Assembly (NCBI GenBank): GCA_026015185.1
Contig: JAOZGX010000047.1
Location: 3,475 to 67,474, forward strand
Reading direction: 5' to 3'
Length of the DNA: 64,000 nucleotides
DNA from: Candidatus Bathyarchaeota archaeon
GTDB taxonomy: Archaea > Thermoproteota > Bathyarchaeia > 40CM-2-53-6 > RBG-13-38-9
Made by a program: the position numbers and the translations under genes. The notes beneath the pieces were generated by a model, which was not told where the DNA came from, searched no databases, and saw only the letters and a program-made list of their open reading frames with translations. Position 1 is the first letter of the stretch. Each line of letters opens with the position of its first letter. Below, piece by piece: positions 1,546-55,589 of the stretch.

Positions 1546-3270
1546 GTGTTAACCTTCTTATCATCTCAAACTGGGGTAGTAGATTTGGCAAGAAACAAGA
1601 TTGTCATAATTGGAGGTGTTGCTACAGGACCGAAAGCTGCAGCTAGAGCTAGAAGGATAGATCCTGATGCGGATATTACAATAATCGATAAGGGAGAGCT
1701 ATTTTCTTATGCAGGTTGTGGAATGCCGTTTTATATCGAGGGACTTATTGAAGATGTAAACGAATTGATGTGTACTCCTCTTGGAGTTGTTAGAGATGAA
1801 TCCTTTTTTAAAAATACTAAGAATGTGAAAGTACTTGGAAAGACAGAAGCTATAAAAATTAATAGAAATGCTAAAAAAATTACTGTTAAAAATTTGAAAA
1901 CAGATGAGATTCAAGATATTGAATATGATAAATTAATATTAGCCACAGGAGCTTATCCAGTAACTCCTCCAATCGAAGGTATAGATCTAGCAAGGGTTTA
2001 TCAACTTAATAATCTAAAAGACGCTCGGGCCATAAGGGAAACTCTTGAAAAAGGAGCAAATGAAATTGTAATAATCGGAGCAGGCTTGATTGGTTTTGAA
2101 ACTTGTGGAGCCTTTGTCTCTAGAGGCTGTAAAGTTACAATAGTAGAGATCTTAGATCAGATCTTGCCTGGTTTGCTGGATTCTACTATGGCTGCGTTAT
2201 TGACAAATTATCTGAAGGATAAGGGAGTAGAGGTATTGGTCTCTGAAAAAGTTACTAAAATTGAAGGTGACGAACAGGGCTATGTTAAGAAGGTCATAAC
2301 TGATAAAAATGAAATCAATGCGGATATGATCATAGTTGCAGTTGGAGTTAGACCAGAAGCCAAATTAGCAAAAGAGGCTGGAGTGAAGCTTGGAGATATG
2401 GGGGGCATATTAGTAAACGAATATCTTCAAACCAACGATCCAAATATCTATGCTGGTGGCGATTGTGTGGAAAATCTGAACCTCATTACAGGTATTAATT
2501 CTTATGTTCCGATGGGTTCTACTGCTAATAAACATGGTAGAGTGATCGGAGACAATATTACGGGTGGCAAAACAACTTTTCCAGGGATAACAGGAACCGT
2601 TGTTTTTAAAATCTTAGATTATAATATCGGCAAGACTGGACTTAATGAGAAACAGGCCATTGACCTTGGATATGAACCGATTACCTGCATAAGACCGTCT
2701 CCAGACTGTGCACATTATCATCCTAGCACTAAACCATTCATAATTAAACTGATAGTTGATCACAAGACTGGAAAAATTCTTGGTGGTCAAGGATTAGGTG
2801 CTGGTGAAGTAGTTAAACGTATAGATACCCTCGCTACAGCGATTAAATTCGGGGCTACGGTAAAAGATCTTGTTGATATAGATCTGGGATATGCTCCTCC
2901 TTATTCAACATCAATTGACGCAATTGCTCATGCAGCTAATATCATAAGAAATAAAATCGAGGGTTTAGCTAAAGGAATTTCACCAATTGAGCTAAAAGAG
3001 AAAATTGAACGAAATGATGATTTCATTTTATTAGATGTAAGAACTAAAAAAGAGATTGAAAAAAGGACATTTAAAGATAAGAGGGTCAATTGGATTCCTT
3101 TGGGATCGCTTCAAGATAAATTAAACCAACTGCCAAAAGGAAAGGAGATAATTATTTACTGCCAATCTAGTCTACGGGCATATGAAGCGCAACGGATCAT
3201 TGAAGGTAAAGGTTTTAAGGATGTCAAATTCTTAGATGGCGGACTTCTGGCATGGCCATATGATCTGTGA
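1546..3270 (+). CDS. CoA-disulfide reductase / NADH oxidase-type pyridine nucleotide-disulfide oxidoreductase with C-terminal rhodanese domain
   Basis: N-terminal FAD Rossmann fold (KIVIIGGVATGP), a second NAD fold (IVIIGAGLIGFE), and a C-terminal rhodanese with active-site Cys (IIIYCQSSLRA). GTG start. Confidence 0.75.
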   Translation: MLTFLSSQTGVVDLARNKIVIIGGVATGPKAAARARRIDPDADITIIDKGELFSYAGCGMPFYIEGLIEDVNELMCTPLGVVRDESFFKNTKNVKVLGKTEAIKINRNAKKITVKNLKTDEIQDIEYDKLILATGAYPVTPPIEGIDLARVYQLNNLKDARAIRETLEKGANEIVIIGAGLIGFETCGAFVSRGCKVTIVEILDQILPGLLDSTMAALLTNYLKDKGVEVLVSEKVTKIEGDEQGYVKKVITDKNEINADMIIVAVGVRPEAKLAKEAGVKLGDMGGILVNEYLQTNDPNIYAGGDCVENLNLITGINSYVPMGSTANKHGRVIGDNITGGKTTFPGITGTVVFKILDYNIGKTGLNEKQAIDLGYEPITCIRPSPDCAHYHPSTKPFIIKLIVDHKTGKILGGQGLGAGEVVKRIDTLATAIKFGATVKDLVDIDLGYAPPYSTSIDAIAHAANIIRNKIEGLAKGISPIELKEKIERNDDFILLDVRTKKEIEKRTFKDKRVNWIPLGSLQDKLNQLPKGKEIIIYCQSSLRAYEAQRIIEGKGFKDVKFLDGGLLAWPYDL

Positions 3271-16847: not shown

Positions 16848-16965
16848 GGGCCGGTAGTTCAGCCCGGTATACCTTTAATACAAAGGGCCAAAGAACGTCC
16901 GGTTTGCAAGGTATTTTACCCAAAATGCCGGAAAGCCGCGGGTTCAAATCCCGCCCGGTCCACCA
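16848..16965 (+). tRNA. tRNA-Ala (UGC) with two intron-like insertions (D-arm ~23 nt; anticodon-loop region ~18 nt), CCA encoded
   Basis: Acceptor stem GGGCCGG/CCGGUCC with a G3:U70 pair. Anticodon stem UCCGG/CCGGA with loop UUUGCAA, and T-arm GCGGG-UUCAAAU-CCCGC. 118 nt against 77 nt mature. Confidence 0.8.
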
Positions 16966-37000: not shown

Positions 37001-38356
37001 TTGAGTTCTGAAGCTATAAGATCGATTTTTGAGCCAAATTCAATTGCAATAGTTGGAGCATCAAGAAACCGAGAAAAAGTTGGCTATTTAATTCTTGAAA
37101 ATTTACTTAAGAGTGGTTTTAAAGGTAAACTATATCCGATTAACCCAAAAGTCGATGAAATTCTAGGTCTAAGGACATACCCCTCAATCGGGGATGTGAT
37201 AGAAGATATTGATCTTGTGGTCATTGCTATACCAGCAACAATTGTACCAAATATATTAAAGGAATGCGGAAAGAAAGGGATTAAATCTGCCATTGTAATT
37301 TCAGGGGGTTTTCGTGAAACAGGAAAAGAAGGAGAAGAACTAGAGAAATCAATAATTAAAATCATAAATCAAACAGGAATCCGTTTAGTCGGTCCTAACT
37401 GCATTGGTGTAGACAATCCCTATATCGGTATGTCAATGTGGATCGGTGTCAAAAAGAAAGGGCCAATATCAATAGTATCTCAGAGTGGTCTCGTGGGAAC
37501 CGCTTTCCAATGCTGGGCAGAAAAGGAAGGTATCGGAATTAGCAAATGTATATCACTAGGAAACCAAGTTGACGTTAATGAAATTGACATCTCAAGATAT
37601 TTTGAAGAAGACCCCAACACAAAAACCATCGTAATGTATCTTGAGGGCACTCATAATGGAAGGAAATTCATGAGAGTGGCTTCGGAAGTATCAAAAAAGA
37701 AACCCATCATAGCTTTAAAAGGAGGTCGAACTGAAAAAGGCATCAGGGCAGCAAGATCTCACACGAGATCCCTCTCTGGAAAAAGTGAGATCTTCGAGAC
37801 AGCAATAAAGCAATCCGGTATTCTTAGTGCAAATACCCTCGAGGAACTCTATATCTATGCAAAAGCGCTATCATTTTTACCTTTACCTAAAGGTCGAAAA
37901 GTACTCATCATAACATCATCCGGAGGCGCGGGAATTATGGCTGCCGATACAGTTGATAGACTTAATTTAGAACTACCTGCCATCTCAGAGAATGTTGAAA
38001 AACGTCTTCGACAAAAATTACCTAGCTACTGTGTATTTGACAATCCATTCGATGTGACCACTACCAGAGTAGAATCATTTCAGCTAGTGATGCAGGAAAA
38101 TCTTGAAGATGAAAATATTGATGCGTTTCTACCTATCTTTGCGGATCCTCTCCCCCGTGCAGCTGAAGCTGTAAAAAGCATTACAGAAAAAACTGACAAA
38201 CCAATTGTAGTTTGTTATGTTGGTGGTGGTAAAATCGAAGACATCGAAAAAGAAAAGATGCATAAAACAGGGATTCCTGTATTTTCAACCCCTGAAAAAG
38301 CCGTAACCGCTTTGTATGCATTAGTAAGATATCATGAACTTCAAAGCGCGCACTAA
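37001..38356 (+). CDS. ADP-forming acyl-CoA synthetase alpha subunit (CoA-binding/succinyl-CoA synthetase-like)
   Basis: CoA-binding Rossmann fold (SIAIVGASRNREKVGY) and a ligase-CoA domain with phosphohistidine region (SRSHTRSLSG). Confidence 0.7.
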   Translation: MSSEAIRSIFEPNSIAIVGASRNREKVGYLILENLLKSGFKGKLYPINPKVDEILGLRTYPSIGDVIEDIDLVVIAIPATIVPNILKECGKKGIKSAIVISGGFRETGKEGEELEKSIIKIINQTGIRLVGPNCIGVDNPYIGMSMWIGVKKKGPISIVSQSGLVGTAFQCWAEKEGIGISKCISLGNQVDVNEIDISRYFEEDPNTKTIVMYLEGTHNGRKFMRVASEVSKKKPIIALKGGRTEKGIRAARSHTRSLSGKSEIFETAIKQSGILSANTLEELYIYAKALSFLPLPKGRKVLIITSSGGAGIMAADTVDRLNLELPAISENVEKRLRQKLPSYCVFDNPFDVTTTRVESFQLVMQENLEDENIDAFLPIFADPLPRAAEAVKSITEKTDKPIVVCYVGGGKIEDIEKEKMHKTGIPVFSTPEKAVTALYALVRYHELQSAH

Positions 38357-39579
38357 AATTTGGATTTAATCATTTCTGATTGAATTTCCATATAATCTTT
38401 CAGATGTCTAGTAATTAGAAAATTCTTTTTTACATATTCTCTTCCTTGTAATCCTAGGACATTTGCAAGATCACGTTTCTTTAAGAGTTGAACAATTCTA
38501 TCCGCCGCTTCTCTAATATCACTAACCAGAAAGCCCGTTATGCCATCTATCACTTGAAGAGGTATTCCACCTACTTTTGTGCCTACGACTGGAGTTCCTT
38601 TCCAGAGAGCCTCAGTAACCGTTAAGCCAAAACCTTCTCTGATAGATTTCTGAATCACAACATCAGAAGCTCTTTGAAAGGAATTAACTTCTAAATCGTC
38701 AAGGTTTAATAGCATGTGCACATCTTCGACTTCCTCAGCTTTTCTTGATGTTTTTTCAAACCATTCCTGACCTTCTGGATCATCATAAGCCATGTTGCCA
38801 ATTAAAATGAGTTGAGTATCAGGTACCTTCATTTTTACTAATTTATAGGATTCAATTACGCCTAGAGGATCCTTCCAATAATCAAATCGTGATATTTGAG
38901 AAATTATTGGTTTTTCAGGGTCTATATCAAATTTCTGAAGTGTTTTATGAATAGTCTCCGGGGGCAAGGATTTGTTCTTATCTGAAAGTGGATCAATGGA
39001 TGGGGGTACCAAATATATTCTTTTTTTACTGACGTCTTTGTGGACATATTTATCTAATGAAAAAATAAGTGCGTCATATTTAGTGATGATTTGTTTGATA
39101 AAATTCCAGTAAACTAAATTTGCATTAGTTAGATCGATATGACACCGCCAAAGGATTTGTTTATTATCTTTTAACATCTCTATTATCGGTGCTGGTTGTG
39201 GGTCGTGGACGACTAGCAAATCCGAGCCCAAGTCTGTTGTATCGGCGAATTCCCTGTTGTATCTAAAGTATATATCCTTCATAGGTTCGGTTAATGGTAA
39301 ATCCATCCCCTGAAGAGCATTGTGAAAACTTTTTGTTACCTCAAAAAATTCAGGGGCCCCTTTAATAACTTGCCACCTCATATCCAATCCAATAGAGCTG
39401 GCTAAAGGAATTAAATTCTGTAAAATCTCTGCAACTCCACCACCAATCTTTGTAGAATTGATGTGAATTATAGATGTTCCCTTTAAACGCTCAGCTAATT
39501 CTACGATCCCATTTACTGAGTCTTGTCCTATAATATCGGCGTATTGCTCTATTGATTTATTTTCAGCCAACCGAACCAC
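38353..39579 (-). CDS. Glycosyltransferase family 4, TreT-like (putative trehalose glycosyltransferring synthase)
   Basis: 408 aa. GT-B fold, with a C-terminal GT4 region ending EGFGLTVTEALWKGTPVV. Divergent from the otsA/otsB fusion. Confidence 0.5.
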   Translation of the reverse strand: MVRLAENKSIEQYADIIGQDSVNGIVELAERLKGTSIIHINSTKIGGGVAEILQNLIPLASSIGLDMRWQVIKGAPEFFEVTKSFHNALQGMDLPLTEPMKDIYFRYNREFADTTDLGSDLLVVHDPQPAPIIEMLKDNKQILWRCHIDLTNANLVYWNFIKQIITKYDALIFSLDKYVHKDVSKKRIYLVPPSIDPLSDKNKSLPPETIHKTLQKFDIDPEKPIISQISRFDYWKDPLGVIESYKLVKMKVPDTQLILIGNMAYDDPEGQEWFEKTSRKAEEVEDVHMLLNLDDLEVNSFQRASDVVIQKSIREGFGLTVTEALWKGTPVVGTKVGGIPLQVIDGITGFLVSDIREAADRIVQLLKKRDLANVLGLQGREYVKKNFLITRHLKDYMEIQSEMIKSKF

Positions 39580-39773
39580 ATTCCTCTATTTATCTAAAAT
39601 TTTCTAGGCATTATTCTCAAAGCAATTGATTTTTCAATATTGAGCGGTTTTGCCTCAATATATTTTTATTGATTTCAAAAGAAGCTTAATCAAGGGTCCA
39701 TGGAAATTCATATAACAATTATCATCTTATTATTCCATAGATGACTTAATGGTTGCTAAATTAGGTTAATAAT

Positions 39774-41954
39774 ATGTCTCGTTTGCTGACGATTTCAAAT
39801 AGATTACCATTCAATATTGTAAGAAAAAAAGATACAATAAGATTTCAAAAAAGCATAGGTGGATTAGCAACTGGCTTAGGTTCATTTTATAAATCAAATC
39901 AGAGCTTCTGGATAGGATGGCCAGGAATAGCATTAGAAGAGATAAATCAGAAAGAACTTGAAAAGATTAAGAAAGGGTTGGCCTCTAAGAATTGTTATCC
40001 TGTTTTCCTATCTCGAAATGATATTTCGAATTATTATCAAGGCTTTTGTAACAAGACCATATGGCCTTTGTTTTCATATTTTCCTCAATATACAATTTAT
40101 GAAGAAAAATTTTGGAAATCTTACAAGGATGTAAATGAAGCTTTTTGTGATGCGGTAATTCAAGTTCTAAAAAAGGACGATATAATCTGGGTCCATGATT
40201 ATCAATTGATGTTACTGCCAAGATTGTTGAGAGAGAAGCTTCCCGATGCTACAATTGGATTTTTTCTTCACATTCCCTTTCCATCATCTGAATTATTCCG
40301 TCTACTGCCATGGCGCGAGGAAATAATTGAAGGTCTTTTAGGAGCAGATCTTATTGGATTTCATACCTACGATTATGTAAGACATTTTCTGAATAGTCTA
40401 CGTTTTATTTCGGGTTATGATTCAACTTTTGGTCAGATAAACATTGGAAATAGAATAATAAAAGCAGATATCTTTCCAATGGGGATAGAATACAACCGAT
40501 TTGCGAGTGCTACTAAGAATCCCAAAGTGCAAAAGGAGATTAGAAAATTCAAAAGAAAACTTGGTGATCGTAAAATAATTCTTTCGATGGATAGGTTAGA
40601 TTATACAAAAGGCCTATCACAAAGATTAAAATCATTTGATTATTTCTTAGCAGAGAATCCTGAGTTTATAGAGAAGGCAACTCTAATTCTTGTTGCTTCT
40701 CCTTCAAGAATGGATGTAGATCAATATAAGCTGATGAAAAAAGAGATAGACGAGATCGTTGGAAGAATTAATGGAAAATACGGCACTATGGGATGGGTGC
40801 CAATTTGGTATATTAATCGATATTTAGATGGTGATTCTGTCTCTGCTCTGTATAGTATTGCAGATGTCGCTCTTGTAACTCCACTAAGAGATGGAATGAA
40901 CCTAATATCGAAGGAATTCATAGCCACAAAAACAAATGGTCTAGGAGTTTTAATATTAAGTGGAATGGCAGGAGCTGCAAAAGAACTAGGAGAAGCAATT
41001 ATAGTAAATCCAAACAATATTGAATCTATTGCTTCAGCACTTGTAGACGCGTTAAAGATGTCAAAAAGCGAGCAAATTGCACGAAATAGAACGATGCAAA
41101 AAAGACTTCGACGTTATAATATTGAACGATGGGCAAAGGATTTCATTGAAGGTCTTAAGTCTATCAAGAAGACTCAAAGAGAATTAACCTCAAAGAGACT
41201 TACTTCCAACAGTATGAAGCAAATAGTAGATGATTATAAAAGAAGCAAAGATAGACTGTTTTTGTTAGATTACGATGGTACCTTAGTCTCGTTTACAAGT
41301 AAACCGACCAAAATTAAACCAGATAGAGAATTATCAGGATTGCTTAAGGGACTCATTAGTGAGTCGAATAATGAAGTCATAATTGTAAGTGGACGAGATA
41401 AAAATTCTCTAGGAAAAGGGTTCAAGAAATTAGATGTAAATCTAATAGCGGAACATGGTGTCTGGATCAAGTGTAAAAAAAGCTCGTGGGAAATAATTGA
41501 ACCTTTGAGAGATGATTGGAAAGAAGAAATACATCCATTACTGGAATTATATGTTGACAGAACGCCTGGCTCTCTTATTGAAGAGAAAGATTATTCTCTT
41601 GTTTGGCATTATCGAAAAGCAGATCCTGAACTAGCATCAGTTAGAGCAAGAGAGCTTAGAGATGATTTATTACATTTAACTTCAAATCTTGATGTTGGAG
41701 TATTAGAAGGAAGTAAGGTTATAGAAGTCAAGAATTTAAATGCAAACAAAGGACAGGCCGCAGCTCGTTTTATTTCAAAAAAGAAATGGGATTTTATATT
41801 AGCTATTGGTGATGATCAAACGGACGAAGATGTATTCGCTGCTCTTCCAGACACAGCTTATTCCATTAAGGTAAGATTAGGTCCTTCGCAAGCCAAATAC
41901 ACAATTGAGTCTCCTGAAGATGTGAGGCATTTATTAAAGGAATTAATATCCTAA
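39774..41954 (+). CDS. Bifunctional trehalose-6-phosphate synthase (GT20, OtsA) / trehalose-6-phosphate phosphatase (HAD, OtsB)
   Basis: N-terminal GT20 domain (RLLTISNRLPF, WVHDYQLMLLP, GFFLHIPFPS). C-terminal HAD domain (LFLLDYDGTL, AIGDDQTDEDVF). Confidence 0.85.
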   Translation: MSRLLTISNRLPFNIVRKKDTIRFQKSIGGLATGLGSFYKSNQSFWIGWPGIALEEINQKELEKIKKGLASKNCYPVFLSRNDISNYYQGFCNKTIWPLFSYFPQYTIYEEKFWKSYKDVNEAFCDAVIQVLKKDDIIWVHDYQLMLLPRLLREKLPDATIGFFLHIPFPSSELFRLLPWREEIIEGLLGADLIGFHTYDYVRHFLNSLRFISGYDSTFGQINIGNRIIKADIFPMGIEYNRFASATKNPKVQKEIRKFKRKLGDRKIILSMDRLDYTKGLSQRLKSFDYFLAENPEFIEKATLILVASPSRMDVDQYKLMKKEIDEIVGRINGKYGTMGWVPIWYINRYLDGDSVSALYSIADVALVTPLRDGMNLISKEFIATKTNGLGVLILSGMAGAAKELGEAIIVNPNNIESIASALVDALKMSKSEQIARNRTMQKRLRRYNIERWAKDFIEGLKSIKKTQRELTSKRLTSNSMKQIVDDYKRSKDRLFLLDYDGTLVSFTSKPTKIKPDRELSGLLKGLISESNNEVIIVSGRDKNSLGKGFKKLDVNLIAEHGVWIKCKKSSWEIIEPLRDDWKEEIHPLLELYVDRTPGSLIEEKDYSLVWHYRKADPELASVRARELRDDLLHLTSNLDVGVLEGSKVIEVKNLNANKGQAAARFISKKKWDFILAIGDDQTDEDVFAALPDTAYSIKVRLGPSQAKYTIESPEDVRHLLKELIS

Positions 41955-44813: not shown

Positions 44814-45308
44814 ATGAAAACAGATGATAATCTTAAAGCTGCTTTTGCAGGAGAGTCGCAAGCTAATAGAAAGTATACAGCTTTTGCCATAAAGGCAGAG
44901 CAAGAAGGATTTTCTCAGGTTGCAAAGCTGTTCAAAGCTGCAGCTGATGCAGAGACTGTGCACGCACTTAATCATTTAAGGACCTTAAAGGAAGTCGGAT
45001 CTACTATTGAAAATCTTAAAGTGGCTAAAGAGGGGGAAACGCATGAGTTCAAGGAAATGTATCCAGATTTTATTAAAAATGCGGAAGAAGAGAATCGTGC
45101 TGATGCTAAATTAACATTTAGTTATGCGAACAAAGTTGAAGAAGTGCATGCACAATTATATCAAGAAGCTACAGAAGCTGTTGAGTCGGGTAAAGATTTG
45201 CCTGATTCTGATTTATTCGTATGTCAGACTTGTGGTTACACGGCAAAAGAAGCCCCAGACGTATGCCCAGTATGCAGCTCACCTAAAGAACGGTTCAAGA
45301 AAATCTAA
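44814..45308 (+). CDS. Rubrerythrin with C-terminal rubredoxin-like domain
   Basis: Diiron ferritin-like motifs (ESQANRKY; ETHEFKEMY) and C-terminal CQTCGY...CPVCSSP. Confidence 0.85.
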   Translation: MKTDDNLKAAFAGESQANRKYTAFAIKAEQEGFSQVAKLFKAAADAETVHALNHLRTLKEVGSTIENLKVAKEGETHEFKEMYPDFIKNAEEENRADAKLTFSYANKVEEVHAQLYQEATEAVESGKDLPDSDLFVCQTCGYTAKEAPDVCPVCSSPKERFKKI

Positions 45309-46097: not shown

Positions 46098-47153
46098 TTG
46101 AATGAAGATACTGTTTTTACCTTCGGTGGTTTCCATCCCGATTTCGCTGAGGAGATAGAGTATTTTAGGAAATGTAAAGTCTATAGTCTGCAAATTGAGG
46201 CAAATCTTGCTTGTCCTCAAGGTTGTCTCTACTGTTATGCTTCATCCACTGATAAGCCCATGAAAGAATTACCAGCGGAGGATATCATCAAGGTCATTGA
46301 TTCCGCTGCAAAGATGGATATCCGGATGATCGACTGGTTGGGTGGTGATCCACTTCTTAGAAGTGATTGGTATGAGCTAATGAGTTACGCAAAGAGCAAG
46401 AATTTAAAGAACACCGTCTGGACAAGCGGCATACCTTTAGAGAATATAGAGGTGGCTAAGAAGGCGGTAGAAGTGACGGAGGGCGGTTTCATCTCTGTTC
46501 ATCTTGATAGCTTAGATGAGGGGATCTATAGAAAACTACATACTGGAGATCCTAAAAGAAAGATAGCGTCTATCTTGAAAGGGGTGGATAATGTACAATC
46601 TCTCGGAAAAAATCCAGACCAAATGATCAATTGCATTACCTTTACAAAATTAGTATCAGAAGATGTTGATAGAACGATAAAGTATTTTTATGATAAAAAG
46701 GGAATGCGAACCTGCTTAACGCAAATGTGTATGGAAGGCCTGGCTGAAGAACACTCTGATTGGGAACCTACTATTAATGACGTTAAAATGGCTTGCAAGG
46801 CTAGAGATAATATAAACTACCCTGACTCAAAACTGTCGATGGGCAGTATGGATACAAACAAATTCTATTGTGGAGGCATGATCTGCGTAACTGTCGATGG
46901 AGAAGTTACTCCTTGCTCTGTCATTAGAAAAGGTTTTGGAAATATCAAGACAACTCCACTAGAATATATAGTGGAAAAACACAAGAACGAATTGCTTTTC
47001 GCCCATTTGAGAGATACAAAGAACTTGCCAGGGAATTGTAGTAGTTGCGAGCATAATTCAGTTTGTTGGGGTTGTAGAGCAACAGCGTATATTGAGACAG
47101 GAGATCTCTTCGCAGAAGATCCCAAATGCTATATAAATCCCAAAAATAAATAA
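46098..47153 (+). CDS. Radical SAM enzyme with C-terminal SPASM/twitch Cys-rich domain
   Basis: CPQGCLYCY (CxxxCxxC) radical SAM cluster. C-terminal Cys cluster FYCGGMICV...TPCS...CSSCEHNSVCWGCRA. Confidence 0.7.
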   Translation: MNEDTVFTFGGFHPDFAEEIEYFRKCKVYSLQIEANLACPQGCLYCYASSTDKPMKELPAEDIIKVIDSAAKMDIRMIDWLGGDPLLRSDWYELMSYAKSKNLKNTVWTSGIPLENIEVAKKAVEVTEGGFISVHLDSLDEGIYRKLHTGDPKRKIASILKGVDNVQSLGKNPDQMINCITFTKLVSEDVDRTIKYFYDKKGMRTCLTQMCMEGLAEEHSDWEPTINDVKMACKARDNINYPDSKLSMGSMDTNKFYCGGMICVTVDGEVTPCSVIRKGFGNIKTTPLEYIVEKHKNELLFAHLRDTKNLPGNCSSCEHNSVCWGCRATAYIETGDLFAEDPKCYINPKNK

Positions 47154-47177: not shown

Positions 47178-47984
47178 TTGAATATTGAAAAGGGTAAAAA
47201 ACTTGATTTTACAATCTCTGATGTTAACGAGGTCTATGACGGTCCTGTTGGAATTCTTTGGGAAATGTTGATGGGAGAACAGATCCATGTAGGTGGAGAG
47301 AAAGAAACCGATATTCTTGCTGAAAAGGCACAAATAACTAAAGAAAAGACTGTTTTAGATGTCTGTAGTGCTTTAGGAGGTCCAGCTAGACATTTAACAA
47401 AAAAATACGGCTGTAAAATCACAGGATTAGATGCAACAACAACTATGACAAATGAAGCTATTAAAAGAACAGAAAAGGCGGGTTTAGCTGATCTTATTAA
47501 TTATAAGTTAGGTAATGCCTTGGATATGCCATTTAAGGCAAACTCGTTTGATATAGTCTGGGGTCAAGATGCTTGGTGCTACATAACCGATAAGGACAGA
47601 CTGATAAGCGAAGCCCATAGAGTTATTAAACCCAATGGAATCATCGCCTTCACAGACTGGCTCCAAGTAGGTAACATGACGGATAAAGAATGGGATGATC
47701 TTAATAGTTTCATGGCATTCCCATACATGGAAACCTTAGATGGATATGAACAAATATTGAAGAAAACCGGATTTGAAGTCATTGAGAAAGAGGACTTGAG
47801 TGAAGATTTCGCCAAACATTGCCACATTTACCAAGATATGCTTAGAACCGAATTAAAAGATGGGATATTACAAAAATATGGGGAAGATATGTTCAAGATT
47901 GCTGATGGTGGATTAAATCTTTGGGTAAAAGCAGCTGACGAGGGAAAAGTTGGACGTGGAAGGTTAATAGGCAAAAAATTATAA
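47178..47984 (+). CDS. Class I SAM-dependent methyltransferase
   Basis: Motif I VLDVCSALGGPARHL and a post-I acidic residue (GLDAT). Confidence 0.7.
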   Translation: MNIEKGKKLDFTISDVNEVYDGPVGILWEMLMGEQIHVGGEKETDILAEKAQITKEKTVLDVCSALGGPARHLTKKYGCKITGLDATTTMTNEAIKRTEKAGLADLINYKLGNALDMPFKANSFDIVWGQDAWCYITDKDRLISEAHRVIKPNGIIAFTDWLQVGNMTDKEWDDLNSFMAFPYMETLDGYEQILKKTGFEVIEKEDLSEDFAKHCHIYQDMLRTELKDGILQKYGEDMFKIADGGLNLWVKAADEGKVGRGRLIGKKL

Positions 47985-48017: not shown

Positions 48018-48668
48018 ATGAAGTGGGAAAGATTAACAAATGTTGGTTCAGGAATTCTACTAATAGGAATCGTATGGCTAATATTCTGGTTGACCGTTGC
48101 ATTTCAATTATTTGAAAATGATCCACGCTGGGGGCATAACTTTGCTATTCCCTTAATCTTCATAACAATTGGATTAGCTTATCATTTCAACAAAATATCT
48201 TGTCAATTGGTTTCTGTGTTTTCTTCCTTCCTAACAGTACCAATATTTCTAGCTTTCATTGCGTGGGATACAGGGACCATTATAGCAGTTGTGTTATTAT
48301 TATTGACAATAATTCTATATCTGATAGAGGGGAAGAGAAAAGTGCAAATCATAAATCCAAAACCGATGCTAAGGATTTGGCTAAAAATACACCCATTGAA
48401 TTTTGCTTATTTTGGTCTTTTACACATGCCTTTGTTATTTTTCCTTGTAAGATGGTTCAACCCTGATCCTTTCCTCATATATTTGCCTGTAGAGCATGAA
48501 CCTTCAACAAGCATCTTTAATTTTATGTTGTTGATACTAACGCCATTAGCCATAATGGAGCGATATGTCAACAAAATAGGGAGATTTGAGGTTTCGAAAA
48601 TTGGTTTCTTTTGGACAATACTAATGATAATTTTGCCACTGATCTCAATAGGTATTCTAGGGCATTGA
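48018..48668 (+). CDS. Membrane protein of uncharacterised family (paralog of the C-terminal domain of 50845-52029)
   Basis: 216 aa with about 6 TM. Shares motifs DPRWGHNFA, LIEGKRK, WLKIHPL and LLHMP with the fusion protein on the opposite strand. Confidence 0.55.
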   Translation: MKWERLTNVGSGILLIGIVWLIFWLTVAFQLFENDPRWGHNFAIPLIFITIGLAYHFNKISCQLVSVFSSFLTVPIFLAFIAWDTGTIIAVVLLLLTIILYLIEGKRKVQIINPKPMLRIWLKIHPLNFAYFGLLHMPLLFFLVRWFNPDPFLIYLPVEHEPSTSIFNFMLLILTPLAIMERYVNKIGRFEVSKIGFFWTILMIILPLISIGILGH

Positions 48669-48741
48669 TATCTTGATAGTTCTAGAATCTTTTAATTACC
48701 AGAATAAATCAAAAAAGATAGAATGTGCATAGTAATTTATT

Positions 48742-50154
48742 ATGAATCTCAAACTAAGACCTTCCAAATCTATTTCCAAGATAACAATGCTACAAAAACA
48801 TAAATCCAAATTATTTCTTTTCTTTTTATCAGGTTTTTTTCAACTTCTTATCTACTATAATTTATTTACAATAGGAAATCTCGGCGAAAACATCACGTTA
48901 TTTCTTAGAAACTATATCTTATTGTTTGTAATCTATTTTTTGACTCTATTTTCTTGTATGAAGAATGGATTAGCAAAGAGTTACTTCTCAAGATACTTGG
49001 CTTTGATGTTCTTATTTTCTATTTTATTTAGAAGCCTTATGGTGATCTCTGATGTGTCACTCAGCACAGACATTTTAAGATACCTATGGGATGGAATGCT
49101 TCTAAACAATGGAATAGATCCGTATGAATATATTCCACTATCATCAGAACTTGATAGGTTTAAGGATGTTGAATTCTATCAAGCTTACGACCATAAAGGC
49201 GAATTTACTCCTTACCCTCCATTCTCTCAACTATTCTTCACAATAAGCTACTTGATATTCAATGCAAGTATTACAGGAATGAAGTCCTTACTATCCGTCT
49301 TCGATTTTCTTAACGGCATTTTAATAATACTACTTATTTTGAAAATTAGAGGCGATACTCTTCAAGCTTTTCAAGGTGCTTTAATTTATTTATGGAATCC
49401 TCTTGTAATAATAGAATTTTCACATAGTGGGCATATAGATGCGTTAGCGATATTTCTGACTCTTCTCAGCCTTTACTTTCTTTCTAATTTATCTGTTATC
49501 AACTCATCAGTTCTGATCTTGCTAAGTACCTTAACTAAATGGTTCTCTTTACTTTTCACTCCACTCTATCTCAAATACTTTTTCAAAAATAGCATAAGAT
49601 CCTCTATTTTGACTATTGCATCAATATCTTTTACTTTTTCAATGTTAGTAATACCATTCTATCTTAATTCTAGATTCAATTTTGTAATGGGAATGATTTA
49701 TTTCATAAAGAACTGGAGGTTTGAGTCTTTTCTATCAAGACTCATAACAATTTTTCTTCAGCTAGATACCCCAGAAGAGACATACATAGCGAAATTAACT
49801 TCCTATCTTATTTTCTTAACATCTTATTTTTTCATTCTCTATAAATCAAAATTATATCAAGTATCGAATGTGATAGAATATTCAATTTTAACCCTACTAA
49901 CATTCTACTTTATAACTCCATCCATATTTCCTTGGTACATGCCTTGGATATTGGCTTTGTTTTCAATTTTGAAGGTCGATAGGAGAACTTGGCTTACTAT
50001 TTTTCTATCGGGAATTTCAGTAATAAGCTATATAATGGAGTTTTATCCGCTTTCGGAGTTTGAATTTTGGTTCGCATATATACTATGGTTCATTCCAATA
50101 GTTGGAATCTATTTCCTACATACATCTGAATTGATTAAACAAGGGGATAAATAA
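48742..50154 (+). CDS. Polytopic membrane protein, GT-C-fold glycosyltransferase-like (DUF2029/GT87-like)
   Basis: 470 aa with more than 10 TM. The size and topology are typical of GT-C mannosyltransferase-like proteins. No firm motif. Confidence 0.4.
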   Translation: MNLKLRPSKSISKITMLQKHKSKLFLFFLSGFFQLLIYYNLFTIGNLGENITLFLRNYILLFVIYFLTLFSCMKNGLAKSYFSRYLALMFLFSILFRSLMVISDVSLSTDILRYLWDGMLLNNGIDPYEYIPLSSELDRFKDVEFYQAYDHKGEFTPYPPFSQLFFTISYLIFNASITGMKSLLSVFDFLNGILIILLILKIRGDTLQAFQGALIYLWNPLVIIEFSHSGHIDALAIFLTLLSLYFLSNLSVINSSVLILLSTLTKWFSLLFTPLYLKYFFKNSIRSSILTIASISFTFSMLVIPFYLNSRFNFVMGMIYFIKNWRFESFLSRLITIFLQLDTPEETYIAKLTSYLIFLTSYFFILYKSKLYQVSNVIEYSILTLLTFYFITPSIFPWYMPWILALFSILKVDRRTWLTIFLSGISVISYIMEFYPLSEFEFWFAYILWFIPIVGIYFLHTSELIKQGDK

Positions 50155-50239
50155 TCATTATATAAAGGCTGATATAACTAGCGAAATTATATTGTCTTTA
50201 TTTCTCATATTTCATTAATAGATCTTTAAGAATCATTGA

Positions 50240-50830
50240 GTGTATGTTATGCATCGACTTAGGCAAATATTATTAAAATCCCCTTGGATTATTTATTTTC
50301 CACTTTGGGCTTTATGGATAGTTCTTAATTTCACTGGCCCTGGGGCTTGGATTGGTCCAACAGTTCTAAAGCAACTTGTTTTAGGGCCAAGAACAGATTT
50401 GAATGTTATCTTTCCGATTACTTGGATAAGTGCTGTCGTATCTTTTATCTTTATAATTTATTTTCTTAGGAATCGGACTTCATTTTTTAATTCGTTGGCC
50501 ATATCTGCAGCATCTCAACTTGGAGCTACTTTCTTATTTGAATTCATCTTTAGTATTATCGCACTTTGTATTCATGATCATCCTATTTTAGAAGGAAATC
50601 CTTACTACATAGTGATCGGTCTATCATGGCTTGTCATGCCGATATGTGGAATAAGTTTCTGGTCATGGAATCAGCATCTTCAGGTATCAATAGGATTATT
50701 TGTATTGGGATTTTTGGTATGGTCGTTTATCGGATTTCCGATTTTGAAGGGGATAGATAGCATAGTATTAAACTATCTTACCAAGATTGCCTCATTTTAT
50801 ATAATTACGAGTTTGTACATTTCGGAATGA
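50240..50830 (+). CDS. Hypothetical membrane protein
   Basis: 196 aa with about 5 TM. Confidence 0.4.
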   Translation: MYVMHRLRQILLKSPWIIYFPLWALWIVLNFTGPGAWIGPTVLKQLVLGPRTDLNVIFPITWISAVVSFIFIIYFLRNRTSFFNSLAISAASQLGATFLFEFIFSIIALCIHDHPILEGNPYYIVIGLSWLVMPICGISFWSWNQHLQVSIGLFVLGFLVWSFIGFPILKGIDSIVLNYLTKIASFYIITSLYISE

Positions 50831-50844
50831 TGCTCATTTGAAGG

Positions 50845-52029
50845 CTACACTTCACAGACCGGCGCTCGCTTATATGCCCATAGAGAGATCAATAGAATTG
50901 CAATTGTTACAGCAAGTGGCAATCCGTATATGTTCCAAGCACTTGATGACATACCAAGTAATAGAATGCCTAGGATAGTGATCATTAAAGCCCACCAGTA
51001 AGCGAGTTTTGAAACCCTCAATTTTCTTCTAAAAGATCCTCTCAATCTTTCAGCCATACCAAAAAGACCAAATGGAATTATCAGAATATTGAATAATGCA
51101 GTACCCCAATGCATAGGATCCCAAGGTGGTTCGGGTGGAAGATTCACTTCCATAGGTTCACCAAAGAAAGCTCTAGATACCCAATAGATAAAGGGCATGT
51201 GTAATAGAAATAGAAAAGCAAGGGTTAAGAAGTGAATTTTGAGCCAATTTCGCCAGCGATGATGTGAAAATAGAAGCTCTTGCTTTCTGCCCTTTTCAAT
51301 TAGAATTAAAACAGCCATAATTATTAATAATATTAATGCTACGTATGTGCTTTGAATTCCAGATATCGCACCTGCCTCAGTTGGAATGATCAAAAAAGCC
51401 GAAAGTGCAGCTACAAGACTTGAGGATAATTTTTTCGCTTTGTATGCAACACCAATAGTAATTAGAATAATAGGGAAAGCGAAGTTATGTGCCCATCTGG
51501 GATCTGAAAGATAAGATGATAAATGTGGAAATAGCCACAAATATAGCCAGAACATTCCCATGAGGATTAGACCCGCACCAATATCAGTGAATCTCTTTAT
51601 TTTTAAGGCAACAGTTCTTGGAGGATTTAGGATCTCACACAACCTTTCATGGTGACCTTCCTCATCTGTATATATTTTTTGTAAAAGTTTCTTTATTCGC
51701 TCTTCTCCCTCTTCGTCCGCTATCTTGATGTATTTCTCAAGACGCCTCATGGCTTCAGCTTCGACATCTATATCTCTTTTTATAAGTTCTTCACGGGTCT
51801 TTCCAGCAGGTTTTAATTTTTTAGGAACTGTAGTAGGCACACCACCAAGACGAGCCACTTCTCTGGAACACCATTCAATGTGAGACATCTCTTCCATTGA
51901 GAAGTCTTCCATTAAATCGATCATCAGAGGATCATCAGTTAGGTAAGCGTGCTGTTGGTACTCTGCTACAGCTGCAAGCTCCACTGCAACAAGATCATTT
52001 AAAAATGTAATAAGTCTAGATTTGCCCAT
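50845..52029 (-). CDS. Ferritin-like/rubrerythrin-like diiron domain fused to a 6-TM membrane domain
   Basis: N-terminal four-helix-bundle-like region with E...ExxH-type carboxylate/His motifs (EMSHIEW; EEGHHERL). The C-terminal half is homologous to the ORF at 48018-48668. Confidence 0.5.
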   Translation of the reverse strand: MGKSRLITFLNDLVAVELAAVAEYQQHAYLTDDPLMIDLMEDFSMEEMSHIEWCSREVARLGGVPTTVPKKLKPAGKTREELIKRDIDVEAEAMRRLEKYIKIADEEGEERIKKLLQKIYTDEEGHHERLCEILNPPRTVALKIKRFTDIGAGLILMGMFWLYLWLFPHLSSYLSDPRWAHNFAFPIILITIGVAYKAKKLSSSLVAALSAFLIIPTEAGAISGIQSTYVALILLIIMAVLILIEKGRKQELLFSHHRWRNWLKIHFLTLAFLFLLHMPFIYWVSRAFFGEPMEVNLPPEPPWDPMHWGTALFNILIIPFGLFGMAERLRGSFRRKLRVSKLAYWWALMITILGILLLGMSSSAWNIYGLPLAVTIAILLISLWAYKRAPVCEV

Positions 52030-52098
52030 TGATAACGCCTTCAATTAACCAAACTATGAAATAGTCAGCTAAAAAATTTGATATTTTAATTATATATA

Positions 52099-53382: not shown

Positions 53383-54744
53383 TTATCTTAAGACTCTGAA
53401 TATTTTATCAGTAAACCAATTAAACGGCTGCCCGAATATTTTGTAACCAGATCGTCCAAGATATTTCACAATCCTAAATTGCACAGCTGCTTTGATAATC
53501 GCAAATTTCAGTTTAGATTCAGAAAATTCTGAATCAAATTCCAATCTTTGATTGATAAGCCTTATTCCATGTGATTTTTTACTTTTCAAGGTATTCTTTA
53601 CCTTCATATGAAGACCGGTCCCTGGAATGGGATATGGAAGAGTGAAGGATACGTAATCTAAAGGAAGAGAAATTGCAAAGTCTATTGTATCAAGAATCGT
53701 CTCATTGCTTTCACCAGGATAACCTAAAATGAAAAAAGCCCCAGTCTCGATGCCAGCTGAACTAGCGGCGTTTATACCTTCTCTAGCTGTCTGAATTTCT
53801 ATATCTTTTTTCATAATCGTTTTTAAAATCTTATCATTCCCGGACTCAAGTCCAAAGTATATCCTTTGACAGCCAGCTTTCTTCATATGGTGAGCCATCT
53901 CCGCATCAAAGGTGTCTGCTCTAGATAAGCACTGCCATCTTATATCTAGATTTTGAGAAATTATCTCTTTACAGATTTCAATCACTCGCTCTTTTGAGAT
54001 AGTAAAACAATCATCTGCAAACCAGATCACATCATATCCTAATTTCTTGATCGAAACCATTTCCTCGACTATATTTTTAGGAGACCGAAGTCGTACAGTA
54101 TCGCCAAAAATCGGTTTGCTGCAAAAATCACAGTTATATGGGCAACCTCTAGTTGATATCATAGATGTCATTTTGTGACCAAAATATCTTTCATAGTAAT
54201 TCTGGTATGATTCATTATCAAAGAGTTCTCTAGCAGGTGAAGGAATTGAATCAATATCTTTGATAATAGAACTTTGCCTATTGTAATGGATTTTACCTTT
54301 ATCATTATATGCTATTCCAATAGTCTTCCGAAAATCTTTAGAATTGAAATAATTCATCGTTAGCTCTAGCATAATCTTTTCACCTTCTCCAATTATGACA
54401 GCATCAAAATCCTTTAGAAAATTTGAGGGTTCAATCGTAGGGAGTGGTCCTCCAACGACCAACAGACCAGTCATGTCCCTAACACTTTTTGCTAGAGATA
54501 TGCTTTCTTTTTCAATAGAATACATGGAATAGAATCCAATTATCTGTGGCTCTGATTTTTTGATCTCATTTAACACATCTACTTCAGTCTTAAAAGTACA
54601 ATCTATTATTCTTACCGTAAAATTTTCTTGCTTCAAAGTCGAAGCAATATATCCTAGTCCCAAAGGCGGAAATCTAAAAGGAGAATTATTCCATCTCTTC
54701 TTAAAGATAGGATTAACAAGAAGAACATCTACCAATAGATTCAC
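53383..54744 (-). CDS. B12-binding-domain radical SAM protein (class B)
   Basis: N-terminal cobalamin-binding Rossmann-like domain (PPLGLGYIASTLKQENFTVRIIDC). Radical SAM cluster TRGCPYNCDFC. Confidence 0.75.
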   Translation of the reverse strand: MNLLVDVLLVNPIFKKRWNNSPFRFPPLGLGYIASTLKQENFTVRIIDCTFKTEVDVLNEIKKSEPQIIGFYSMYSIEKESISLAKSVRDMTGLLVVGGPLPTIEPSNFLKDFDAVIIGEGEKIMLELTMNYFNSKDFRKTIGIAYNDKGKIHYNRQSSIIKDIDSIPSPARELFDNESYQNYYERYFGHKMTSMISTRGCPYNCDFCSKPIFGDTVRLRSPKNIVEEMVSIKKLGYDVIWFADDCFTISKERVIEICKEIISQNLDIRWQCLSRADTFDAEMAHHMKKAGCQRIYFGLESGNDKILKTIMKKDIEIQTAREGINAASSAGIETGAFFILGYPGESNETILDTIDFAISLPLDYVSFTLPYPIPGTGLHMKVKNTLKSKKSHGIRLINQRLEFDSEFSESKLKFAIIKAAVQFRIVKYLGRSGYKIFGQPFNWFTDKIFRVLR

Positions 54745-55589
54745 CTTTTGAGATGAATGTTATATGTGAAACATTCAATTCTTTTTGGGATCGAATAACA
54801 AAAACCAGACCAATTTAAACGTGGTCTAAGAGATTCACGTCCTCTAAATAGAACCGTTCCAGGAATTTCTTCAAGGCAAAACTTGACATTTGCCGCAATA
54901 TTTGATAAACATGCTTTTTTCGACTTAACTTCCTGCCATACTCCAATTTCGTCGTTTGTTAGAGTCTTTCCTTCTTCTTCATAAATATTAAAGTCAGAGG
55001 ATTGTTCATTAAAGATCAATATTTTTTGAATTTTTTTATCAATCAAGCCAGTAGAATCTACACTGATTTTTAATTGATCACCAATCAGTGAATAAACAAT
55101 TCTGATTTGACCCTTAGTTTCAATTTTTTGATGTGATAATCTTACACCAATTAATGATTGAATCCTAATAAGGGCATTCAGTAATGGTCTAGCTTTTTTG
55201 TTTTCTCTATATATTTTCGTTAACTTAGGTAGTAAAGTACCATAGAACCGATTATCTACATAGAATTTGCCTTTCCAATTTCTTCTTAAAATAGTATCAA
55301 TTTCAAAATTTTTCACTAAAGCGTCATTTTTTTTTGATATGCTTGCTGTGGAGGAGAAAATAACATCATTAGGATATTCTATAGCAACTGAACCGAATCC
55401 GATACCTTCACCACTTAGAGATCGATCCCTAAAATAGAGTTCAAGACCCTTTTGCAATCCCGATGAATCCCCAATATTGAAATGGTTCATATCAAATAAT
55501 TTCAATGAGATCTCACCATCAAGAATTAGGGATTTTTTTTCGAGTTTTTCGTAAGAAGTTTGATTGAGAGATCGATTTTTAACATTCAT
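54741..55589 (-). CDS. Hypothetical protein, translationally coupled to the B12-rSAM gene
   Basis: 282-aa ORF. Its stop overlaps the rSAM start by 4 nt. Confidence 0.4.
   Translation of the reverse strand: MNVKNRSLNQTSYEKLEKKSLILDGEISLKLFDMNHFNIGDSSGLQKGLELYFRDRSLSGEGIGFGSVAIEYPNDVIFSSTASISKKNDALVKNFEIDTILRRNWKGKFYVDNRFYGTLLPKLTKIYRENKKARPLLNALIRIQSLIGVRLSHQKIETKGQIRIVYSLIGDQLKISVDSTGLIDKKIQKILIFNEQSSDFNIYEEEGKTLTNDEIGVWQEVKSKKACLSNIAANVKFCLEEIPGTVLFRGRESLRPRLNWSGFCYSIPKRIECFTYNIHLKR

Follow-up and report, generated by a model that had tools for sequence, protein, structure and literature searches.

We examined 64,000 nucleotides (nt) of low-GC DNA (32-41%) from a Candidatus Bathyarchaeota metagenome-assembled genome (MAG; contig JAOZGX010000047.1, positions 3,475 to 67,474), referred to here as the window, and found that it encodes, in a single gene cluster, two paralogous members of an orphan family of membrane proteins, one of which carries an intact cytoplasmic center of the bacterioferritin (Bfr) type. 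The first paralogue, ORF A (48018..48668, + strand), is a stand-alone family member of 216 amino acids (aa) with seven predicted transmembrane (TM) helices, its N-terminus inside and its C-terminus outside. The second, ORF B (50845..52029, - strand), is a fusion of 394 aa in which a Bfr-like domain precedes an 8-TM paralogue of ORF A. We take the ATG at 52029 as its start, with a TTG at 52044 as the alternative. The same start is used in the public record for this MAG, NCBI protein P0121, which is encoded on a 73.8-kb contig, matches the fusion with 100% identity and coverage, and is annotated only as a “ferritin-like domain-containing protein”. ORF A and the C-terminal two thirds of ORF B are paralogues, with a similarity far above chance: in BLASTP, residues 1-213 of ORF A are colinear with residues 142-360 of ORF B (36% identity and 59% positives over 219 aa, E = 3e-41). 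A first-pass annotation, made from the sequence, had proposed this shared domain from colinear motifs, and all of the motifs that it listed (DPRW[GA]HNFA, LIE(K/G)(G/K)RK, WLKIH, LLHMP, EMSHIEW, and EEGHHERL) are present and lie in the most conserved alignment columns. The genes also lie about 2 kb apart as it stated, with 2,177 nt between their stop codons. Two of its details need correction. The genes are convergent rather than divergent, with ORF A to the left of ORF B and two + strand genes between them, and the domain does not have six TM helices, as AlphaFold (AF2) models place seven in ORF A (pLDDT 94.5, pTM 0.91) and eight in the membrane part of ORF B (pLDDT 90.6, pTM 0.87).

The membrane domain had been called novel, and we found it to be without known relatives in every resource searched. 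No Pfam or NCBIfam model matches it in ORF A or ORF B, a Pfam scan of all 85 alignment members gave scattered noise only (DUF4199, DUF1634), and a profile search of PDB sequences with the membrane family returned 0 matches. Foldseek searches against the PDB recovered only insignificant GPCR-like helix bundles (best E 0.27, TM < 0.47). When 1.84 billion cluster representatives were searched with an HMM profile, only 50 clusters were recovered (12 below 1e-30) and no link to a larger family emerged, and across these representatives the only extra domain ever attached to the membrane family was the Bfr-like domain; the 194 homologues of ORF A are without any Pfam domain. The family nonetheless extends to several archaeal orders, with hosts in the Bathyarchaeia, Thermoplasmata/Methanomassiliicoccales, Methanoperedens/ANME-2/Methanosarcinales, and Methanoregulaceae, in addition to one Thorarchaeota-labelled record and two Chloroflexota MAGs. 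The fusion form was found in the Bathyarchaeia only (25 non-identical loci, all of Bathyarchaeia-type sequence), and the Chloroflexota have a non-fused 8-TM clade that is related to the fusion type and lacks the di-iron domain. Identity across orders is 45-60% and the distribution is patchy, in sediment and aquifer archaea, which together suggest an accessory, transferable trait. Two records with bacterial labels, a 3-kb contig labelled Bacteroidota (L047) and a protein labelled [Eubacterium] cellulosolvens (P0139), hold a typical archaeal cluster or fusion, and the likely source of these labels is mis-binning or contamination, not a genuine presence in bacteria. Neither the membrane family nor the five-gene cluster in which it occurs (discussed below) is described in Pfam or NCBIfam, and we found no account of them in the literature that we searched.

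The N-terminal part of ORF B (aa 1-135; 51625..52029, - strand) is a four-helix bundle of the Bfr or mini-Bfr type, with helices at residues 4-30, 34-60, 79-106, and 110-134 of the AF2 model. It scores 58.8 bits on Pfam Ferritin (cut-off 24.5, E 7.5e-16) and 26.8 bits on Pfam Rubrerythrin (cut-off 22.8, E 7.5e-6). In Foldseek, the bundle is closest to the mini-Bfr of Ca. Methanoperedens (9qq4; TM 0.91, 25-27% identity), followed by classical Bfrs, E. coli Bfr among them (TM(target) 0.79-0.91 and rmsd 1.3-2.2 A across the Bfr and mini-Bfr matches), while the best phmmer match is 9viw, a 306-aa entry deposited as “Bacterioferritin” with two matching stretches (4e-20), and 9qq4 follows at 2.9e-13. 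When aligned with E. coli Bfr, over ranges that agree with the phmmer match to 1bcf, the di-iron ligands E17, E47/H50, E90, and E123/H126 correspond to E18, E51/H54, E94, and E127/H130 of Bfr, M48 aligns with the haem-ligating M52, and Y24 aligns with Tyr25. All eight of these residues are invariant in 22/22 fusions. The proposed di-iron domain is thus upheld as a four-helix bundle with a complete E/ExxH/E/ExxH site, while its likeness to rubrerythrin gives way to a likeness to Bfr, and no rubredoxin-like Cys4 domain is present in ORF B, the remainder of which consists of TM helices. AlphaFold, Foldseek, and the ligand alignment therefore agree on a bundle with a metal site, just as the BLASTP alignment establishes that the similarity between the two membrane domains is not spurious. 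At the same time, ORF B falls far below the cut-off of the NCBIfam bfr equivalog TIGR00754 (41.4 bits vs 125.55), and it lacks helix E, a feature that it shares with mini-Bfr. These proteins are 12-mers that hold Fe-coproporphyrin III at their dimer interfaces (PMC13168243). In the model of ORF B, helix D runs on into the linker and TM1, and as a helix that continues into eight TM helices leaves no room for a closed 12- or 24-mer shell, the tethered domain would form neither a shell nor a mineral core, and would act not as an iron store but as a non-cage di-iron/haem module.

The membrane domain of the fusion comprises aa 150-386 (50872..51582, - strand), with boundaries and topology drawn from the AF2 helices, conservation, and loop charges. 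Across 46 aligned sequences, the mean number of Lys and Arg residues is 2.8 before TM1 and 1.6, 2.2, and 3.0 in loops 2-3, 4-5, and 6-7, compared to 0.17, 0.07, 0.07, and 0.07 in loops 1-2, 3-4, 5-6, and 7-8, which are acidic. This alternation follows the positive-inside rule and places the Bfr domain in the cytoplasm. Conserved residues are found on both faces. The outer face of the fusion has D176-P-R178-W179-x-H181-N182 at the outer end of TM2, together with R286, P298/E300, and T310/N314, and the inner face has E245, E251, W262, K264, H266, E327, and R328; in ORF A numbering, the outer-face site is D35-P-R-W-x-H40-N41, R145, and E159, and the inner-face residues are E104, E110, W121, K123, E181, and R182. 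Residues H40, N41, E104, W121, R145, P157, and E181 of ORF A persist even in the most divergent members (24-30% identity). Among the His columns, H181 is invariant in both paralogue types and H266 and H277 are conserved in at least 90%, while H257 is invariant among fusions only; none of them lies within a His box. We also considered a pseudo-symmetric transporter repeat and ruled it out, as no internal repeat was detectable between the N- and C-terminal halves (hhalign probability <= 5%).

To the stand-alone form belongs a recurrent gene neighbourhood, which we compared at 53 loci from species-representative genomes and further contigs using tblastn against reference proteins. A gene for a 230-aa GT2 glycosyltransferase lies immediately upstream in divergent orientation at 32 of the 41 loci with enough flank. 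Where at least 4 kb of flank is available on either side (23 loci), 20 loci have a radical-SAM/SPASM (rSAM) gene within 6 kb, 19 a methyltransferase (MTase) gene, 18 the GT2 gene, and 15 a gene for a DUF2064 protein. The usual order is the 7-TM, rSAM, MTase, and DUF2064 genes, with GT2 pointing away from them, and the 7-TM and rSAM genes are separated by only 2 nt in some Thermoplasmata and Methanoperedens loci. This cluster occurs in the Bathyarchaeia, Thermoplasmata, Methanoperedens/ANME-2, and Methanoregulaceae; a member with only 28% identity (L061) retains all five genes, and the locus of a Chloroflexota member reads 8TM-GT2'-DUF2064, where GT2' is the GT2 paralogue otherwise found beside the fusion. 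The GT2 of the cluster reaches 199.5 bits on TIGR04283 in L001 (cut-off 182; 168.3 bits in L051), and the DUF2064 protein of L001 reaches 194.7 bits on TIGR04282 (cut-off 134). These two families are the “arsenosugar biosynthesis glycosyltransferase” pair of NCBI. Both GT2 types match polyprenyl-phosphate glycosyltransferases in the PDB (DPMS 5mlz, ArnC, GtrB), but at about 230 aa they are without the TM helices of those enzymes. At four Bathyarchaeia loci (L005:12915-14144, L019, L011, and L072), a DUF438-hemerythrin-PAS_10 protein, which is O2/redox-related, adjoins the TIGR04283-type GT2.

In the window, ORF A is part of a + strand string with gaps of 24-85 nt that consists of genes for a rubrerythrin, an FNR-like protein, the rSAM, the MTase, ORF A, a 470-aa GT-C-like protein, and a 196-aa TM protein, and the layout of a 91%-identical contig (L062) is exactly the same. 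The rubrerythrin gene at its head (44814-45308, +) was named by eye from its translation, and the FNR-like flavoprotein gene that follows it there and in L062 (45359-46060, +; FAD/NAD-binding) was identified with Pfam and NCBIfam. FNR-like genes were also seen near the family in L013, L018, L082, and L083. The rSAM enzyme (46098..47153, +; 351 aa; Pfam Radical_SAM and SPASM) is a universal partner of the membrane family. Its best NCBIfam matches (NirJ, AhbD, and TIGR04053, at 85-110 bits) are far below the cut-offs and ArsS is not matched, while its CX3CX2C and SPASM cysteines are kept in 35 orthologues. The second universal partner is a class I SAM methyltransferase (47178..47984, +; 268 aa) whose gene ends 33 nt upstream of ORF A. 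It is nearest to N-methyltransferases and reaches 26-28 bits on the ArsM equivalog (cut-off 400). C63, within SAM motif I, and C134 are invariant in this protein and 30 orthologues, and two further cysteines are 83-93% conserved. Such a pattern would not be expected of an ordinary small-molecule methyltransferase and may have to do with a substrate bound through thiols, perhaps a metalloid. Downstream of ORF A, the 470-aa polytopic membrane protein (48742..50154, +) is a probable GT-C glycosyltransferase; the window copy has no Pfam match, but a 51%-identical homologue in L005 has a precomputed match to PF26314 (MptA_B_family).

Around the fusion we compared 25 non-identical loci, and immediate neighbours are given as counts out of 21. 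Its most constant neighbour is the gene for the 196-aa membrane protein, of unassigned family (50240..50830, + in the window), which lies immediately downstream in convergent orientation in 14 of 21 loci, plus one truncated copy, and in the window the stop codons of the two genes are 14 nt apart. No Pfam or NCBIfam model matches the 196-aa protein, and a role as a cytochrome-like partner was ruled out, as it has no invariant His or Cys. The immediate upstream neighbours all lie on the same strand as the fusion. In 11/21 loci the gene encodes a 206-aa Fe-S protein that resembles the N-terminus of NuoG (Fer2_4 and an Nqo3 ferredoxin-like domain), preceded, at the six loci with sufficient upstream sequence, by genes for NuoF-like (FMN and 4Fe-4S) and NuoE-like ([2Fe-2S]) proteins. 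Loci with these NuoE/F/G-like genes are L050, L055, L056, L058, L066, L069, L071, L075, L076, L077, and L081 (e.g. L075:4726-9167). No terminal catalytic subunit is encoded with the trio (some short contigs hold only part of it), which may represent a new NAD(P)H-oxidising assembly; it is absent from the window and never occurs beside the stand-alone type. In a further 7/21 loci the upstream gene is GT2' (229 aa), a catalytic domain only, whose best matches (AglJ at 119 bits vs a cut-off of 325, Dol-P hexose transferase, PpgS, DPMS 5mlz, and ArnC) all remain below cut-offs. A peroxiredoxin-like gene is found there once (1/21, L053), and a gene for a 422-aa GT87-like GT-C glycosyltransferase twice (2/21, the window and L062; 52099..53367, - in the window, with Pfam GT87 at 25.7 bits vs a cut-off of 25). 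Within 7 kb of the fusion, the 470-aa GT-C-like gene occurs in 7/25 loci and peroxiredoxin genes in 8/25, with a ferritin and two peroxiredoxin genes directly upstream at one locus. The L008 locus (L008:2376-3340), where the gene beside GT2' and the 196-aa protein might have passed for a non-fused copy of the fusion type, was set aside as evidence, since that gene appears degenerate: only a 78-aa ORF is left, the ferritin part is undetectable, and tblastn similarity spans 2635-3183. We regard it as a pseudogene or else the result of misassembly.

The reading that we tentatively favour, with a probability of roughly 0.3, is that the membrane domain carries out the membrane step of an uncharacterised pathway for a lipid-linked sugar or head group, and that the Bfr domain was added to it as a redox module that forms no cage. 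For the catalytic and transport steps, we infer the following scheme. The soluble enzymes of the pathway would be the TM-less GT2 (TIGR04283-type, or its Dol-P/polyprenyl-P-type paralogue), the TIGR04282/DUF2064 protein with its CofC-like nucleotidyl-transferase fold, the radical-SAM/SPASM enzyme, and the SAM methyltransferase, and in the cytoplasm these could assemble a modified group of sugar or ribose origin and convert it to an activated form. Next, the GT2 would move this group onto a membrane lipid held at the inner face of the 7-TM protein, by the conserved E104, E110, W121, K123, E181, and R182, and the 7-TM protein would hand the lipid-linked product to the outer-face site formed by the DPRW motif region, R145, and E159. 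GT-C enzymes use lipid-linked sugar donors at the outer face of the membrane, and in the Bathyarchaeia the co-encoded GT-C glycosyltransferases could use the product there. We favour a membrane step because the rSAM/MTase/GT2(/DUF2064) set is common to both paralogues, each with its own TM-less GT2 that resembles polyprenyl-P glycosyltransferases, and because GT-C genes lie alongside in the Bathyarchaeia. Split polyprenyl-phosphate glycosyltransferase systems include GtrA/GtrB/GtrC, the mycobacterial PpgS-Rv3632-Rv3779, Ppm1/Ppm2, and DPM1-DPM2/3, and the arrangement here is similar in that a GT2 nearest to DPMS, ArnC, AglJ, and PpgS is encoded beside a small polytopic membrane protein, with a GT-C in the cluster. 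It differs in that the 7-TM protein is unrelated to GtrA, DPM2/3, or the Lnt-like Ppm2, and in that the GT2 of the stand-alone form belongs to TIGR04283. Neither the 7-TM protein nor the 196-aa protein has a Pfam or fold match to the GtrA, Wzx/MOP, or SMR-like flippase families. The membrane domain marks a conserved and unannotated cluster (7TM, radical-SAM/SPASM, MTase, TIGR04282, and TIGR04283) in lineages whose lipids and envelopes are in use as biomarkers and have only a partial genetic explanation.

Several observations weigh against this reading. The membrane domain has no structural or sequence relative with a known function, and the fold search did not recover a GT-C, GtrA, or flippase fold for it. 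No protein in which GT2 and the 7-TM domain are fused was found among the family members, and genes for the TIGR04283 GT2 and DUF2064 are absent from the window itself. The bacterial TIGR04283 proteins are soluble (the model has 221 positions) and are not known to have a membrane partner. The conservation of Glu, His, Asn, Asp, and Arg on both faces is just as compatible with a path for ions or metals. As for the redox module, an AT-rich, TATA-like box precedes the start codon of the fusion by about 55-70 nt. It reads TATATATAATTAAAATA in the window, where the spacer spans 52030-52098, and TTAAATA in the equivalent spacers of many loci (L050-L077), as judged by eye; a purine-rich Shine-Dalgarno-like stretch follows it, and it is present whatever the upstream gene. 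Judging from this box and the spacer of about 70 nt, the fusion gene probably has its own promoter, so we did not assume that it is co-transcribed with the NuoEFG-like genes, and their adjacency may be a matter of synteny and not co-expression. In a close relative of L075 (L103:7309-10233), the NuoEFG-like genes and a downstream aconitase gene are kept with only a ~73-aa remnant of the fusion between them, suggesting a recent loss of the fusion gene.

We read the Bfr domain as an add-on because it is missing from most family members and from the related 8-TM proteins of the Chloroflexota, and for the same reason the membrane domain's own function cannot depend on it. A redox role is suggested by its ferroxidase and haem residues, all of them invariant, by its location in the cytoplasm, and by the redox and reactive oxygen species genes nearby. 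In the scheme we favour, the Bathyarchaeia paralogue acquired this N-terminal cytoplasmic domain as a dimeric di-iron/haem module, most likely for the reduction of O2 or H2O2, or the oxidation of Fe2+, at the membrane; electrons would reach it through an inter-subunit haem, possibly from the products of the adjacent NuoEFG-like Fe-S/flavoprotein genes or from the FNR-like protein. Haem binding, dimerisation, and the electron donor are inferred here. A [2Fe-2S]-containing protein encoded beside the fusion in many loci recalls the delivery of electrons from the Bfd ferredoxin to the haem of Bfr, but unlike Bfr the fusion is tethered to eight TM helices, and the adjoining Fe-S protein is NuoG-N-terminal-like (Fer2_4) and not of the Bfd family. 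Similar to the rubrerythrin-type NAD(P)H peroxidases of anaerobes, the fusion has a di-iron bundle, a putative electron-entry cofactor, and nearby genes for NAD(P)H oxidation and peroxiredoxins; unlike them, it has a haem Met in place of the rubredoxin-like domain and is tethered to the membrane. The first-pass annotation had also suggested a membrane-bound detoxification unit, and this is the better fit for the Bfr part given such neighbours in the window or related loci (rubrerythrin, FNR-like protein, peroxiredoxins, ferritin, hemerythrin, and the NuoEFG-like module), but it leaves the glycosyltransferase and rSAM context of the membrane domain unexplained. With greater speculation, the Bathyarchaeia could have an undescribed assembly for NAD(P)H oxidation with the fusion as its terminal module, docked at the membrane. 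In this assembly, a NuoE/F/G-like flavin/Fe-S chain would pass electrons through the inter-subunit haem to the di-iron center of a non-cage O2/H2O2 reductase or a redox-gated iron or electron conduit, while the orphan 7-TM fold would elsewhere serve an rSAM/GT pathway for membrane-lipid or envelope modification.

An iron exporter similar to MbfA is a less probable alternative. Fusions of a ferritin-like domain and a membrane domain are already known from MbfA (membrane-bound ferritin, Er-VIT1), in which the N-terminal cytoplasmic ferroxidase domain is required for transport, the membrane domain is C-terminal, no cage is formed, and there is a link to iron and peroxide stress; a review describes membrane-bound ferritins as limited to the alpha-proteobacteria (PMC7762939). 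By analogy, the ferritin-like domain of the fusion would capture and oxidise iron in the cytoplasm, the membrane domain would be a new transporter of Fe2+ (or another metal or metalloid), and the stand-alone form would work without a built-in ferroxidase, possibly by docking soluble (mini-)Bfrs. The shared architecture of an N-terminal cytoplasmic di-iron domain on a polytopic membrane domain speaks for this, as do the fact that the family's sole fusion partner is ferritin-like, the Glu, His, Asn, and Asp residues on both faces with His277 in mid-membrane, and the ferritin, peroxiredoxin, and aconitase genes near some fusions. The mid-membrane His residues, however, are not kept in divergent members, the internal repeat typical of secondary transporters is lacking, and no match to VIT1 or another transporter family was found (at E <= 0.01 for the window proteins, and among the weak matches listed for the family as a whole). 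An exporter would also leave unexplained why GT2 genes lie beside both paralogues and why the rSAM/MTase/DUF2064 cluster is found in four archaeal orders. Both parts of the fusion differ from those of MbfA: its di-iron domain is Bfr/mini-Bfr-like with a haem Met where that of MbfA is rubrerythrin-like, its membrane domain is unrelated to VIT1/CCC1 (no Pfam match) and also exists alone in the GT/rSAM cluster, and its host is an archaeon. If our assignment holds, the membrane-bound ferritins would gain their first counterpart from an archaeon, one that arose independently from other parts (a mini-Bfr-like haem/di-iron domain and a new membrane fold) and that is informative about the way in which ferritin-like domains function without a cage.

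A role of the fusion as a membrane di-iron oxygenase that depends on O2 seems unlikely to us; such a hydroxylase or desaturase would act on a bound lipid with electrons passed from NAD(P)H through Fe-S proteins and haem, much as cytochrome b5 feeds desaturases. An O2- or peroxide-dependent lipid hydroxylation or desaturation had been proposed for it at the outset, and it draws on the complete site of four carboxylates and two His, a ligand set as in di-iron oxygenases, on the tethering of this domain to a membrane domain, on the NAD(P)H-oxidising NuoEFG-like module directly upstream in 11/21 loci, and on neighbouring enzymes of a lipid type (B12-rSAM, GT-C). We found no specific support for such a reaction. 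In both sequence and fold, the domain is nearest to bacterioferritins, down to the haem Met and Tyr25, two residues typical of ferroxidases and not of substrate oxygenases; neither protein nor the wider family has His-box motifs or a Pfam match to FA_desaturase, FA_hydroxylase, or another desaturase or hydroxylase family, most of the family is without the di-iron domain, and the hosts are anaerobic sediment archaea. Moreover, in the one characterised case from the Bathyarchaeota, the desaturation and hydroxylation of tetraethers are O2-independent, through the tetraether desaturase Ted and the hydratase Hgs, whose genes overlap and which were identified by heterologous expression and lipidomics (bioRxiv 10.1101/2025.10.20.683597). 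The cluster described here is a concrete target for the approach behind Ted and Hgs. Upstream of the GT87-like gene, the window itself contains a similar pair, formed by a B12-binding radical-SAM enzyme (53383..54744, -; 453 aa; Pfam B12-binding and Radical_SAM, with HpnJ and BchE as the best NCBIfam matches, below cut-offs) and a conserved 282-aa protein of unassigned family (54741..55589, -) whose gene overlaps the start of the former by 4 nt at its 3' end. We also saw this pair at loci of the Bathyarchaeia, Methanoregulaceae, and Methanosarcinales. The overlap resembles the layout of Ted and Hgs, but the 282-aa protein has no match to AttH, CrtC, or any other Pfam family, no PDB match, and only 8 homologues, and both proteins are below the published length thresholds, so we did not adopt this assignment and regard it as a lead only.

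Equally doubtful is an archaeal variant of arsenosugar or arsenolipid synthesis, in which the MTase and a non-ArsS rSAM would make a 5'-deoxyadenosyl-derived organo-(metalloid) sugar that the TIGR04282 and TIGR04283 proteins process and the 7-TM protein attaches to a lipid or exports, the Bfr domain supplying the oxidation step that is ascribed to a peroxidase-like protein in bacteria. Related loci do hold both transferases together with an rSAM and an MTase, as in the pairing with ArsS and ArsM; the GT2 and DUF2064 proteins pass the cut-offs of both families, the MTase has weak ArsM-family matches and two invariant cysteines, and the patchy occurrence and cross-order identity given above would fit such a trait. 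Several points speak against it: the rSAM is SPASM-type and not ArsS, the MTase is nearest to an N-methyltransferase and far below the ArsM equivalog, a 7-TM protein is obligatory, the window lacks both transferases, no ars genes were seen in the inspected loci, and the family names rest on gene association and not on tested function. Our search of the literature on DUF2064, TIGR04282/3, and ArsS found nothing bearing on this cluster. As these families are tied here to a different rSAM and an obligatory membrane protein, the specificity of their NCBI names is in question.

Outside the cluster, two further features of the window were recorded. An Rfam tRNA match at 16848-16962 (+; 49.5 bits, 115 nt), not reported by ARAGORN, is probably an intron-containing archaeal tRNA. 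Genes for trehalose synthesis lie side by side on opposite strands (38353-41954), a TreT-type synthase at 38353-39579 (-) and a fused trehalose-6-phosphate synthase/phosphatase at 39774-41954 (+).

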